NCBI RefSeq assembly: GCF_024502345.1
Contig: NZ_JALDNN010000001.1
Strand: one strand, 5' to 3'
Length of the DNA stretch: 64,000 nt
Source: Escherichia coli
GTDB taxonomy: Bacteria > Pseudomonadota > Gammaproteobacteria > Enterobacterales > Enterobacteriaceae
The notes under the pieces are model-generated. The model made no database searches. It was not told the DNA's origin and worked only from the letters and a program-made list of their open reading frames with translations. The position numbers and the translations under genes are program-made. Position 1 is the stretch's first letter. Every line of letters starts with the position of its first letter. This document shows, one piece after another, positions 31,715-38,176 of the stretch.

Positions 31715-31975
31715 ATACAACTCCTCTGTGAATCGGTTTAGTCAGAAGAAGCAAAAAGACACTTTACCGAAGGGTTTAACATTTTTTCGTGATACTCATC
31801 ACCATGACGCAAATGCGTTGCATAAATTTACCCACCAAAAGTGATGCAAATCACATAAATCACTCTTCATTCTGCAGGACTGCATAAAAGATGAGCCGAT
31901 TCAGGCAATGTGATTTGTTGCATGCTGACTATAGTTAACATTGCGCAACATTTTTATAAGGGTACGGAGAATACC

Positions 31976-32788
31976 ATGGCAACAACACAACAATCTGGAT
32001 TTGCACCTGCTGCATCGCCTCTCGCTTCGACCATCGTTCAGACCCCGGACGACGCGATTGTGGCGGGCTTCACCTCTATCCCTTCACAAGGGGATAACAT
32101 GCCTGCTTACCATGCCAGACCAAAGCAAAGCGATGGCCCACTGCCAGTGGTCATTGTAGTGCAGGAAATTTTTGGCGTGCATGAACATATCCGCGACATT
32201 TGTCGCCGTCTGGCGCTGGAGGGGTATCTGGCTATCGCACCTGAACTTTACTTCCGCGAAGGCGATCCGAATGATTTTGCCGATATCCCCACGTTGCTTA
32301 GCGGTCTGGTAGCAAAAGTGCCTGACTCGCAGGTGCTGGCCGATCTCGATCATGTCGCCAGTTGGGCTTCCCGCAACGGCGGCGATGTTCATCGTTTAAT
32401 GATCACCGGATTCTGCTGGGGTGGACGTATCACCTGGCTGTATGCCGCGCATAATCCACAGCTAAAAGCCGCAGTGGCGTGGTACGGCAAACTGACGGGC
32501 GACAAGTCGTTGAATTCACCGAAACAACCTGTTGATATCGCAACCGATCTTAACGCGCCGGTTCTCGGCTTATATGGCGGTCTGGATAACAGTATTCCGC
32601 AGGAGAGCGTTGAAACCATGCGCCAGGCGCTGCGGGCTGCTAATGCGAAAGCAGAGATTATCGTGTACCCGGATGCCGGGCATGCATTCAACGCTGATTA
32701 TCGCCCGAGCTATCATGCCGAATCTGCGAAAGATGGCTGGCAGCGTATGCTGGAATGGTTTAAGCAGTATGGTGGGAAGCGGAGTTAG
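31976..32788 (+). CDS. ysgA: dienelactone hydrolase-family protein YsgA
   Basis: ORF 31910..32788; the start is MATTQQSGF at 31976; alpha/beta hydrolase motif GFCWGG. Confidence 0.85.
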   Translation: MATTQQSGFAPAASPLASTIVQTPDDAIVAGFTSIPSQGDNMPAYHARPKQSDGPLPVVIVVQEIFGVHEHIRDICRRLALEGYLAIAPELYFREGDPNDFADIPTLLSGLVAKVPDSQVLADLDHVASWASRNGGDVHRLMITGFCWGGRITWLYAAHNPQLKAAVAWYGKLTGDKSLNSPKQPVDIATDLNAPVLGLYGGLDNSIPQESVETMRQALRAANAKAEIIVYPDAGHAFNADYRPSYHAESAKDGWQRMLEWFKQYGGKRS

Positions 32789-33181: not shown

Positions 33182-33657
33182 ATGAGTGATATTATTTACC
33201 TGACCATAACCGGAGAACAACAAGGATGTATTTCCTCTCGTTGTGGAACGAGCGCATCAATAGGTAATCGCTGGCAGATTGGCCATGATGATGAAATCTT
33301 CGCGTTCTCGCTCTCTAATAGTATTACGAATACAGGCAAAGGGTCATAATTGCATGGCCTTAGTTTCTGTAAATTGATTGACAAAAGCTCCCCGTTACTT
33401 ATTAACGCTATTAACAATAACGAGCAGTTGTTCATGGAGTTTGACTTCTATCGGATCAATAGGTTTGGTCGATGGGAGAAATATTACAACATTCAACTCC
33501 GCGGCGCGCTCTTATCAGCAATCAATCACCTGTTTACTGAGAACAATCTGGATACAGAAGCCATCACTGTCAGTTATGAATATATACTCTCCAGGCATCT
33601 GATTGCTAATACTGAATTTAGTTATTTGGCATTTCCCGATAACTACAACCGTCTGTT
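33182..33657 (+). pseudogene. Hcp-family (T6SS tube protein) domain, N-terminal part of a disrupted Hcp-fused toxin gene
   Basis: ATG at 33182 gives MSDIIYLTITGEQQG...; the frame hits TAA at 33347-33349 and resumes in the same frame with the Hcp-like stretch FCKLIDKSSPLL. The reading frame then runs into the IS903 end at 33658. Confidence 0.7.
33649..33657. repeat. IS903 target-site duplication, left copy (CCGTCTGTT)
   Basis: The identical 9-mer recurs at 34715-34723, immediately outside the two inverted repeats. Confidence 0.9.
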
Positions 33658-34714
33658 GGCTTTGTTGAATAAATCGAACTTTTGCTGAGTTGAAGGATCA
33701 GATCACGTATCTTCCCGACAACGCAGACCGTTCCGTGGCAAAGCAAAAGTTCAAAATCACCAACTGGCCCACCTACAATAAAGCCCTCATCAACCGTGGC
33801 TCCATAACTTTCTGGCTGGATGATGAAGCTATTCAGGCCTGGTATGAGTCAGCAACACCTTCTTCACGAGGCAGACCTCAGCGCTATTCTGACCTTGCCA
33901 TCACGACTGTGCTGGTCATTAAACGCGTATTCAGGCTGACCCTGCGCGCTGCGCAGGGCTTTATTGATTCCATTTTTTCTCTGATGAACGTTCCGCTACG
34001 CTGCCCGGATTACAGCTGTGTCAGCAGGCGGGCAAAGTCGGTTAATGTCAGTTTCAAAACGCCCACCCGGGGTGAAATCGCACACCTGGTAATTGATTCC
34101 ACCGGGCTGAAGGTCTTCGGTGAAGGCGAGTGGAAAGTCAAAAAGCATGGCCAGGAACGCCGCCGTATCTGGCGTAAGCTGCATCTCGCCGTTGACAGTA
34201 AAACACATGAAATCATCTGCGCTGACCTGTCGCTGAACAACGTTACGGACTCAGAGGCCTTCCCCGGGTTAATCCGGCAAACCCACCGGAAAATCAGGTC
34301 AGCCGCCGCCGATGGCGCTTACGATACCCGGCTATGTCACGATGAACTGCGGCGTAAGAAAATCAGCGCGCTTATCCCTCCCCGAAAAGGTGCGGGTTAC
34401 TGGCCCGGTGAATATGCAGACCGTAACCGTGCAGTGGCTAATCAGCGAATGACCGGGAGTAATGCGCGGTGGAAATGGACAACAGATTACAACCGTCGCT
34501 CGATAGCGGAAACGGCGATGTACCGGGTAAAACAGCTGTTCGGGGGTTCACTGACACTGCGTGACTACGATGGTCAGGTTGCAGAGGCTATGGCCCTGGT
34601 ACGAGCGCTGAACAAAATGACGAAAGCAGGTATGCCTGAAAGCGTGCGTATTGCCTGAAAACACAACCCGCTACGGGGGAGACTTACCCGAAATCTGATT
34701 TATTCAACAAAGCC
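33658..34714 (+). mobile_element. IS903-type insertion sequence (IS5 family), 1057 bp
   Basis: Terminal 18-bp inverted repeats GGCTTTGTTGAATAAATC (33658-33675, and reverse complement at 34697-34714); internal 322-aa ORF; flanked by a 9-bp direct repeat. Confidence 0.9.
33690..34658 (+). CDS. IS903-type DDE transposase
   Basis: 322-aa ORF matching my recollection of the IS903/IS102 transposase. Confidence 0.85.
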   Translation: MKDQITYLPDNADRSVAKQKFKITNWPTYNKALINRGSITFWLDDEAIQAWYESATPSSRGRPQRYSDLAITTVLVIKRVFRLTLRAAQGFIDSIFSLMNVPLRCPDYSCVSRRAKSVNVSFKTPTRGEIAHLVIDSTGLKVFGEGEWKVKKHGQERRRIWRKLHLAVDSKTHEIICADLSLNNVTDSEAFPGLIRQTHRKIRSAAADGAYDTRLCHDELRRKKISALIPPRKGAGYWPGEYADRNRAVANQRMTGSNARWKWTTDYNRRSIAETAMYRVKQLFGGSLTLRDYDGQVAEAMALVRALNKMTKAGMPESVRIA

Positions 34715-34723
34715 CCGTCTGTT
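34715..34723. repeat. IS903 target-site duplication, right copy (CCGTCTGTT)
   Basis: Exact 9-bp match to 33649-33657. Confidence 0.9.
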
Positions 34724-34753
34724 TATACCACGGCCAAAAACTAAAGCTGGTAA

Positions 34754-35395
34754 TGGTTCAAAACACTTAATAGTAAAGCGGTTGGCAGACTGCTTGCTGC
34801 TGGCGGCATATACAATGGGAATATCGAAGGATTCAGGGAAACAGCAGACAAGTTGGGGGGAGATGCACCTGCTGGTTACGATCAATTTATGGATAACAAA
34901 GGGTTACTCATCGCTGGTGCTTCAATAGTTGCTGGAGCAGTTCTGGGGAGAATGAGACTCCCTGATTTGGAATCACTTGAGCATTTCGGAGCCAGAGGAG
35001 CAGTATCAGGAAGACCATTTAATCCCGACCTTGCCGGTGGTCCAATAGAAAATCTGACGACAGATGGCGTAACAATCAACAGGGAAGGTATCGCTATTGT
35101 TGAAAAACACATAGCCAGATTTGGTCATGACCCTGTAAATGAAGTGATGATCAATAGACTGAAAGACATTGAGAAAGGAAAAATCCCCCCAGAACAAGTA
35201 GATCTTAACTTCTATACTCATGAGTGTCGGGAATATCAGCGTTACTGTAATCTTGGTTGGGAAACAGGACAACCTGATGGTGACGCAGGCTATGCACTCT
35301 GGAATCATACGCATACTGCTACTCTAGAAGATTATAAACTTAAGGGAGAACTTAATGACTTATACCACCAGGATGCACTTGACTATGATAACTGA
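34754..35395 (+). pseudogene. toxin-like C-terminal domain of the disrupted Hcp-fused gene (family not identified)
   Basis: Open frame of 213 codons after a stop at 34751; no ATG near its 5' end (the ORF track uses TTG at 34853). It begins with a Gly/Ala-rich linker (GRLLAAGGIYNGNIEGF...DKLGGDAPAGYDQF). It is in a different frame from the pre-insertion Hcp frame. Confidence 0.5.
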
Positions 35396-35630
35396 AACTG
35401 AAATTAACGTACTGAAAGTTATGGCTGAGAAAGATATAAACTGGAACTGGATGAATCTCGATCGCACACTATCCATAAGGCAAATTCCAGGATTCGGTAA
35501 TGTTGTTAACATTGTTAACAAATTAGCTAACGAGGGTTTGGTTATTATTGAGGATAGCGGACATAAGTCTATGCCTCACTACCACGTTACTGAAAAGGGA
35601 TACAATTTCGTGAAAAGTGAGAATAAATAA
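35355..35630 (+). CDS. putative cognate immunity protein (small cytoplasmic protein)
   Basis: 91-aa ORF with AAGGGAGAA Shine-Dalgarno 6 bp upstream of the ATG at 35355; overlaps the 3' end of the toxin-like ORF (alternative ATG at 35385 overlaps its TGA). Confidence 0.5.
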   Translation: MTYTTRMHLTMITETEINVLKVMAEKDINWNWMNLDRTLSIRQIPGFGNVVNIVNKLANEGLVIIEDSGHKSMPHYHVTEKGYNFVKSENK

Positions 35631-35777
35631 CGTAGCGTTGATTACTGAACAAATCGCTCAGGATTATATTTTGCGTAAAAATGATTCGGTTATTTCTGTA
35701 TCTGAACGGGCGCAGATAGCAAAATGGCTTCCGGTGATGGAAGCCATCAGATTATTGGCAAAGTGCGCGTTGTTCAT

Positions 35778-35818
35778 GCCGGATGCGGCGTGAACGCCTT
35801 GTCCGGCCAACAAAACTC
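35778..35818. repeat. REP element
   Basis: gccggatgcggcgtgaacgccttgtccggcc. Confidence 0.7.
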
Positions 35819-35914: not shown

Positions 35915-38176
35915 TCATCCCCGACGCAAATTCTGCGCCGCCTGCACCATGTTCGCCAGTGCCGCGCGGGTTTCTGGCCAGCCGCGCGTTTTCAGGCCAC
36001 AGTCCGGGTTGACCCACAGGCGCTCTGCCGGAATGCGTTTTGCCGCTTTCTTCAGCAAGGCTTCAATCCATTCCACGCTCGGTACGTTTGGCGAGTGAAT
36101 GTCATAGACGCCTGGACCGATTTCATTCGGATAATCAAACTCTTCAAACGACTCCAGCAACTCCATGTCGGAACGCGAGGTTTCGATGGTGATGACGTCT
36201 GCATCCAGTGCCGCAATCGAATCCATGATGTCGTTGAACTCGCAATAACACATGTGAGTGTGGATTTGTGTGTCATCTTTCGCCACGGCGGCGTTGATAC
36301 GGAAGGCCTCCACGCCCCACTGGAGATATGCATCCCAGTCGCTACGACGCAGCGGTAAACCTTCGCGCAGCGCCGGTTCATCAATCTGGATGATGCCAAT
36401 TCCTGCGGCTTCCAGGTCCGCCACTTCATCACGCAGCGCCAGCGCAATTTGTTTGGCGATGGTTTCACGGCTGACATCTTCACGCGGGAACGACCAGCAG
36501 AGAATGGTCACCGGGCCAGTCAGCATCCCTTTCACCGGTTTATCAGTCAGAGATTGCGCATACTTCGCCCACTCCACGGTAATCGGTGCCGGGCGGCTAA
36601 TGTCACCAATGACAATCGGTGGCTTCACGCAGCGGGAACCGTAGCTCTGTACCCAACCGTTTTGCGTAAAGACAAATCCGTCGAGGTGCTCGCCAAAGTA
36701 TTCCACCATGTCATTACGCTCGGCCTCGCCATGTACCAGCACATCCAGTCCCAAACGTTCCTGTTCAACAATGGCCTGCTTGATATGTTCCGCAATGCCC
36801 GTGCGGTAGTTGTTGGCGTCGAGATTACCCTTTTTGAAATCCAGACGCAGGGTACGAATTTCCGTGGTTTGCGGGAAGGAACCAATCGTGGTGGTCGGCC
36901 ACGCTGGCAGTTTAAAACGCGCACGCTGGGCTTCGGCACGCACTTCATAGACATTCGCACGCTGGCTGTCCTGGGCGGTGATCGCCGCCAGACGCTTTTC
37001 TACTGCCGGGTTATGTACACGAGTAGAGTGACGACGCGCCTGAATTGGAGCGCTCCACTCTGCCAGAGCTGCCGTATCACCACTGTTCAGCGCATCTCGC
37101 AGCAGTGCCAGTTCATGACATTTTTGCAGGGCGAAGGCAAACCAGCTTTTCACTTCTGCATCAAGACGCGTTTCCACGCTCAGGTCGATGGGGCTGTGCA
37201 GCAACGAGCAGGAAGATGCCACCCACAAATCACGTTTGCCGACAATGTCCTTAATTTGCGCATATTTCTCAGTAAGATCGGCGCGCCAGACGTTACGACC
37301 ATTGATCAGACCCGCAGACAGCAGCCAGTCAGAAGGCAGGCGCTTGTGCAGTTCAACAACGTCATCTTTACCATGTACAAGGTCCACATGCAGCCCCTGA
37401 ACAGGCAGCGCAGTAATCGTGTCGAGATTTGGCGTTACGCCTTCAAAATAGGTGGTCAGCAGCAGTTTCACCTGTCCCTGGAGCGCGTCGTAAGCGGGTT
37501 TGTATGCGTCCAGCCACGCCTGTGGTAGTTCCAGTACCAGCGCGGGTTCATCAATCTGTACCCACTCGATGCCGCGTTTCGCCAGTTCTGCCAGCACTTG
37601 CTGATAAACCGGCAGAATGTCGTTCAGCAGGCTAAGGCGGTCAAACTGTTCACCTTTCACTTTCCCCAGCCACAGGTAAGTAACCGGCCCCAGCAGCACA
37701 GGCTTAACGTTGTGGCCCAGCGCCAGCGCCTCGTCCACTTCCTCCAGCAGCTGCGTCCAGGTCAGTTTGAACTGTTGGCCTTTAACGAACTCCGGCACCA
37801 TGTAGTGATAGTTGGTGTTAAACCATTTGGTCATTTCCGCTGCCGCCGCAGGTTCGCCAGTCGGCGCACGTCCACGACCAATACGGAACAGGGTGTCGAT
37901 ATCTACCGAACCGTCTTTGTTCTGATGACGTGGCGGAACATTACCCAGCAGCAAACTGGTGGTCAGTACATGATCGTACCAGGCAAAATCGCCCACCGGC
38001 AGCAGGTCGATACCCGCTTGCTTTTGTTGATCCCAGTGACGAGCACGCAGTTCACGCCCTACTGTCAGCAGTTCTTCACGCGTGGAGTTCCCCGCCCAAT
38101 AACTTTCTTGCGCTTTTTTCAGCTCGCGACGCAGGCCAACGCGAGGGAAACCGAGGGTGTGATTCAATATTGTCAT
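35915..38176 (-). CDS. metE: cobalamin-independent methionine synthase
   Basis: 753 aa, begins [30 protein letters not shown]. Confidence 0.95.

Follow-up and report, generated by a model that had tools for sequence, protein, structure and literature searches.

Hcp–toxin fusions, known as "Hcp-ET" or specialised Hcp effectors, have been described for Enterobacteriaceae (PMC6730261, PMC6099711). In the scheme of Ma et al. (2017), as those two papers relay it, an N-terminal Hcp/TssD domain is followed by a linker, a C-terminal toxin and then a small immunity gene, and the locus analyzed here has the same layout. As in that account, it is an orphan locus on the E. coli chromosome whose toxin and immunity alleles are polymorphic; some strains carry an additional, orphan immunity gene. 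[quoted passage not shown] Another relative is Usp/Hcp-ET3-4 of uropathogenic E. coli, which joins an Hcp-like domain to Pyocin_S/IMT and Colicin-DNase domains and has three immunity genes. The two share an Hcp-fused bacteriocin-type toxin with immunity genes downstream, but Usp occupies a different locus (UTI89_C0121) and carries a different toxin. A Pfam search detected no Pyocin_S/IMT domain in the linker of the gene described here.

Our analysis concerns a stretch of E. coli DNA of 64,000 nucleotides (the window), in which the reading frame is broken between an Hcp domain and a toxin-like domain. The explanation that we favor, at a probability of roughly 0.94, is an inherited 1-bp deletion in an orphan T6SS specialised-Hcp effector gene, which was later hit by a premature TAA codon and by IS903B while the immunity gene was kept. 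The gene belongs to an AT-rich islet (GC 0.37–0.42 vs. 0.51 for the whole window) that is bracketed on the chromosome by ysgA (31910–32788) and metE (35915–38176, minus strand). Within the islet, an hcp (tssD) gene that starts at 33182 is accompanied by an IS element, a toxin-like ORF and, downstream, a small ORF. A megablast search with the IS-excised sequence recovered the locus from 848 of 5426 complete E. coli genomes, chromosomal every time, and the 64 kb of the window show no T6SS cluster. The features on which the argument rests are the following.

33182..33657, + strand: 5′ part of the hcp–toxin fusion pseudogene, Hcp/TssD domain, from the ATG to the IS903B insertion point (RefSeq tssD at the same position; Pfam and NCBIfam on the intact homologue).
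33347..33349, + strand: premature TAA in the Hcp domain, from C>T at 33347; the intact codon is CAA, Gln56 (alignment; RefSeq internal stop flags).
33649..33657, no strand: left copy of the 9-bp target-site duplication CCGTCTGTT (direct repeat).
33658..34714, + strand: IS903B (IS5 family), 1057 bp, transposase ORF intact (perfect 18-bp terminal inverted repeats; plasmid IS903B copies 100% identical over the full length).
34715..34723, no strand: right copy of the 9-bp target-site duplication CCGTCTGTT (direct repeat).
34724..34757, + strand: last authentic in-frame stretch after the IS, ending …FIPRPKTKAGNG (translation equal to the intact L003 protein).
34757..34758, + strand: site of the 1-bp deletion and hence of the frame break, a C missing between two T (alignment with intact alleles).
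34758..34928, + strand: out-of-frame tail of the Hcp reading frame, 56 codons and TAG (frame reading).
34760..34954, + strand: linker of the fusion protein, now in frame 2 (KTLNSKAVGRLLAAGG…GLLIAGASIVAGAVLGRM), with a hydrophobic Gly/Ala-rich helix-like segment (translation matches intact homologues).
34855..34860, + strand: G6 run, not the cause of the frame break (same G6 in intact L003).
34955..35395, + strand: C-terminal toxin domain, 146 aa and TGA, in frame 2, undamaged but cut off from Hcp (AlphaFold2, homologues).
35385..35630, + strand: putative cognate immunity gene, 81 aa, intact, with an 11-nt overlap with the toxin stop (position and polymorphism).

Since the window copy is disrupted, it is useful to begin with its intact counterpart. 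We ran the Hcp profile tests on L003, an intact homologue that is 99% identical to the window gene. Its protein matches Pfam T6SS_HCP (PF05638) at residues 6–135 with an E value of 1.3e-13, scores 125.8 bits against NCBIfam TIGR03344 (cut-off 58.9) and matches the PDB Hcp structure 6a2v at E 1e-14. By these sequence matches, the N-terminal 147 residues are assigned to a bona fide Hcp. Intact alleles encode Hcp and toxin as one protein, of 382 aa in both L002 and L003 and of 377 aa in L004, while in the window the two parts lie in separate frames. From this architecture, the Hcp–toxin protein was probably delivered by a T6SS, and its C-terminal domain would be toxic to bacteria.

The element that splits the Hcp domain from the rest of the gene has every hallmark of IS903 in the IS5 family, namely a length of ∼1057 bp, 18-bp inverted repeats, a 9-bp target duplication and a single transposase ORF. 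Its inverted repeats, GGCTTTGTTGAATAAATC, account for the only two matches to that sequence in the whole window, where 0.01 would be expected by chance. When positions 33658–34723 are removed, what remains matches NZ_CP065615.1 (E. coli FDAARGOS_943, L001), which is IS-free at this site, with 100% identity over 1535 bp. Conceptual excision is therefore exact. The insertion junction itself was not found in any complete E. coli genome of the collection.

A previous reading of the window, made from its sequence only, had placed a 1-bp indel within ∼30 bp of the IS junction, and alignment with intact homologues bears this out. The references, ws5-3 (L003) and MLI121 (L002), are respectively 99.4% and 98.5% identical to the window at the DNA level, and in both a single continuous tssD CDS of 382 aa encodes Hcp, linker and toxin. 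Compared with these alleles, the window has exactly one indel across the gene, a lone missing C at 34757|34758, 4 nt past the second frame-2 stop. Where L003 reads GGT CTC AAA and L002 reads GGC CTC AAA, the window reads GGT TC AAA; over a longer stretch, the deleted reading is GGTTCAAAA and the undeleted reading GGTCTCAAAA. With this C lost, linker and toxin leave frame 0 for frame 2. Indeed, beyond the break site the intact protein (…GNG-LKTLNSKAVGRLLAAGGIYNGNIEGF…) is exactly what frame 2 of the window encodes.

The same alignment clarifies what the two frames contain. Frame 2 is closed by TAA codons at 34742–34744 and 34751–34753, just where the sequence-only reading had put its stops, and is open from 34754 to the TGA at 35393–35395. 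After excision of the IS, the Hcp frame (frame 0, codon start 34722) continues for 68 codons past the junction to a TAG at 34926–34928, so the length given earlier was right. Its content was misjudged in two ways. The first 12 of these codons (FIPRPKTKAGNG, 34722–34757) are authentic protein, as in the intact homologue, and the last 56, which had been taken for low-complexity sequence unlike protein, are the conserved linker read out of frame and are not of low complexity. Within the linker, at 34901–34954, a hydrophobic Gly/Ala-rich segment (GLLIAGASIVAGAVLG) precedes the toxin domain and resembles a glycine zipper or a transmembrane helix.

The plainest rival to an inherited deletion is that the break is a sequencing or assembly error and that the true gene is in frame here. 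Single-base indels are the commonest assembly error, and a short-read contig (L011, Logan SRR18663703) may provide an example close by: it has the intact C at the deletion site, carries G7 in place of the G6 run and has its frame broken at the G-run. Since G7 is found at this position in 0 of 753 complete E. coli genomes, the L011 form is a rare variant or a read error. By comparison, 6 of the 840 complete E. coli genomes surveyed have the exact 77-bp deletion allele of the window and 834 lack it; the best 60 of the 840 matches were inspected and the rest were inferred from identity bands. The 54 matches without the deletion among those 60 all span 78 bases, one more than the deletion allele. 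Carriers come from unrelated projects and origins (FDA-ARGOS, USDA cattle, a hospital in China, a UK pig and a VREC isolate), and in them the deletion cosegregates with a particular toxin-side haplotype. Moreover, its context, GGT[C]TCAAAA, includes no homopolymer, and RefSeq labels the same allele as frameshifted, the tssD of NZ_CP065615.1 (FDAARGOS_943) being annotated "frameshifted; internal stop". Because six genomes from unrelated sources have the same deletion and because no homopolymer is involved, these comparisons argue that the deletion is real, and an error at this site is most improbable.

Two further explanations accept the sequence as it stands and would make the break functional. 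According to one, slippage at the G6 run or at A AAG GGT (34898) joins the two frames, as a programmed or phase-variable switch. The G6 run had been pointed out as a slippage-prone site downstream of the junction, and it is indeed present at 34855–34860; an X XXY YYZ pattern also occurs once in frame 0, as the A AAG GGT just mentioned, and there is the G7 variant of one contig. However, intact alleles such as L003 have the same G6 and need no recoding, so the run has no part in the break. In 76 genomes the surrounding 80 bp show 100% identity, the length of the run varies in none of the 753 complete genomes, and G7 is confined to the single Logan contig; slippage at G6 is thus rejected as the cause. 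Nor does the site look like a programmed frameshift signal, given that 834 of 840 genomes lack the deletion allele, the intact form being the majority, and that the junction has no X XXY YYZ heptamer, the sole one being 140 nt downstream of it. With a slip so far past the break, over 30 residues of the conserved linker would be wrong, and the gene is already cut upstream by the TAA codon and IS903B. We give a recoding switch a negligible chance, the lowest of any explanation considered here.

According to the other, Hcp naturally ends at this point and the toxin, with a start of its own, constitutes a second gene, in the manner of an Hcp with a cargo effector. This was the one outcome that the sequence-only reading had named as fatal to its proposal. 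RefSeq does call a separate "colicin" CDS of 150–161 aa on the toxin fragment in deletion carriers, and standalone homologues of the toxin domain (136–148 aa) exist in cyanobacteria and Pseudomonas. These separate calls, however, are confined to deletion-carrying genomes. The intact loci that we examined are annotated in RefSeq as one continuous tssD CDS (377–382 aa), and since such in-frame alleles are the majority, they contradict a two-gene arrangement. In addition, frame 2 has neither an ATG nor a Shine–Dalgarno-backed start upstream of the linker and is closed just upstream by its two TAA codons. An independent toxin gene is accordingly very improbable, on a par with a sequencing error, and we regard the RefSeq "colicin" calls on such fragments as annotation by-products. 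The inherited deletion remains as the reading that fits these observations: the frame break is a true lesion of a decaying orphan T6SS effector gene, and neither a recoding signal nor an artefact.

The lesions can also be placed in order. Carriers of the deletion have one toxin-side haplotype and fall into two groups by their second lesion, which is either the TAA at 33347 or a 22-bp deletion at 33376–33397. The TAA is common to the window and L001 by alignment and is absent from L002, L003, L007, L008 and L009; RefSeq flags an internal stop in the tssD of L001, L006 and L010. We placed FDAARGOS_944 and VREC0864 in the TAA group because RefSeq reports an internal stop in their tssD and the gene coordinates match those of that group. 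The TAA, which the sequence-only account of the break did not mention, is an inactivating lesion in its own right, independent of the frame break, and is seen in three IS-free genomes that carry the deletion. L007, L008 and L009 form a sister sublineage with the same 1-bp deletion and the 22-bp Hcp-domain deletion, without the TAA at 33347, and L009 has acquired an extra 1314-bp IS3-family insertion in the linker, after window position 34901. Because it is common to two sublineages with different second hits, the 1-bp deletion is the oldest lesion. IS903B is the newest and is unique to the window, since its junction occurs in no complete genome.

On this evidence, decay began with the loss of a C between 34757 and 34758, which disconnected linker and toxin from the Hcp frame. 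From then on, the toxin could no longer be made as part of the Hcp subunit and therefore would not be loaded into the T6SS tube. The lineage of the window next gained CAA>TAA at codon 56 (33347), and IS903B inserted last (33658–34714). Today, the window has no uninterrupted Hcp frame from which a tube subunit could be made, the frame being broken by the TAA at 33347–33349, by IS903B and by the deletion at 34757|34758. Throughout, the immunity gene stayed intact, which matches the outcome usually reached by decay of this kind: the strain is disarmed but would remain protected from kin that are still armed. In these respects, the window gene does not differ in substance from ordinary bacterial pseudogenes: its lesions were acquired step by step (the 1-bp deletion, the stop codon and IS903B, complete with target duplication), and of these the IS903B insertion alone is unique to the window. 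Its state is one of ordinary gene decay. RefSeq in fact already lists the IS-free but otherwise identical allele as a pseudogene. What the locus adds is a small, clean case of ordered pseudogenization, from deletion to nonsense mutation to IS, with the immunity gene retained.

The only mildly novel part of the locus is the toxin module, a widespread polymorphic toxin that matches no Pfam family and no solved structure; with its 81-aa partner, it is the one lead that merits further attention. The 146-aa toxin domain has no match in Pfam, NCBIfam, PADLOC or PHROGs. In the full intact protein, Pfam gives nothing at E ≤ 10 beyond Hcp, and it gives nothing in 31 homologues of the toxin domain either. 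AlphaFold2 predicts a mostly alpha-helical domain (pLDDT 92), and no structural neighbor of this model was found in the PDB. Residues that are invariant or nearly so include H52, R55, D83, H89, E90, R92, E93, W116, N117, H120 and H138, and the catalogue of polymorphic toxins (PMC3482391) lists no all-alpha family with a matching motif. A ββα-Me (HNH) fold is absent from the predicted helical model. The source names "colicin" and "HNH endonuclease" given to fragments of this gene were considered and set aside, as no profile and no predicted fold backs either. T6EC4, another Hcp-fused toxin (PMC11148199), was likewise set aside; it is a Tox-REase-5-like nuclease with no obvious relation to the toxin domain.

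Homologues of the toxin domain are nevertheless abundant. When 1.84 billion representatives (clusters at 50% identity) were searched with a profile, the domain turned up in 825 clusters, of which 283 reached E ≤ 1e-30. In the 150 of these 825 that were listed, its position is mostly C-terminal or close to the C-terminus, in carriers of 105–5214 aa, and spot checks confirmed PAAR, LysM and Hcp carriers. In AFDB50 it is C-terminal in Hcp, PAAR and RHS proteins and in many proteins with S-type pyocin (pyosin/cloacin) translocation domains, at 43–56% identity and TM scores of 0.83–0.89. The standalone versions of 136–148 aa belong to Microcoleus (cyanobacteria) and Pseudomonas indica. The C-terminal cytotoxic modules of S-type pyocins and colicin-like bacteriocins, which are polymorphic toxins, are among the closest known comparisons. 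The same domain closes proteins from Salmonella, Serratia, Pseudomonas and Yersinia that are annotated as S-type pyocins or as having a pyosin/cloacin translocation domain (43–48% identity, TM 0.83–0.89); however, it falls outside the five Pfam-profiled killing domains of the nuclease bacteriocins (PMC5536347). It could represent a sixth killing activity, biochemically uncharacterised, in the pool of toxins shared by bacteriocins and T6SSs, a suggestion that we make tentatively and at somewhat less than even odds. The pyocin-type inner-membrane translocation domain accompanies nucleases that act in the cytoplasm (PMC9040868). Because the pyocin-type carriers of our toxin have such a domain, a cytoplasmic target, possibly nucleic acid, is by analogy a reasonable guess, and only a guess.

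The 81-aa partner of the toxin in the window is identical to the protein encoded beside the intact toxin in L003. A second allele class occupies the same ysgA–metE site (AR_0372 and ATCC 25922; L004 2709–3286, L005 2637–3214) and has a toxin that is 83% identical. There, the toxin is followed by its own 85-aa immunity homologue (59% identity) and then by an orphan copy that is 86% identical to the immunity protein of the window (L004/L005). This second class is intact in AR_0372 and has an internal stop in the toxin gene of ATCC 25922; thus, decay of the locus is common in other lineages too. A small adjacent gene that covaries with its toxin, as in Hcp-ET loci, is the signature of a polymorphic toxin–immunity pair. 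By its position and polymorphism, the 81-aa ORF presumably serves as the immunity gene, with a putative protective role. A weak Lrs14-like HTH match, the only one returned for this protein by NCBIfam (E 0.026), suggests a winged-helix-like fold. RefSeq gives one 81-aa immunity variant (L009 5476–5721) the name "MarR family transcriptional regulator".

The islet shows a few other features at its margins. In FDAARGOS_943, an IS1A lies between ysgA and hcp (L001 463–1160); it is absent from the window, to which that locus is otherwise equal after excision, and is another independent IS hit at the islet. On the metE side, the end of the immunity gene is overlapped by a 58-aa ORF (35617–35793), for which some RefSeq genomes give a hypothetical protein. 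After this ORF, and ahead of metE, comes a REP-like palindromic sequence (35760–35815).
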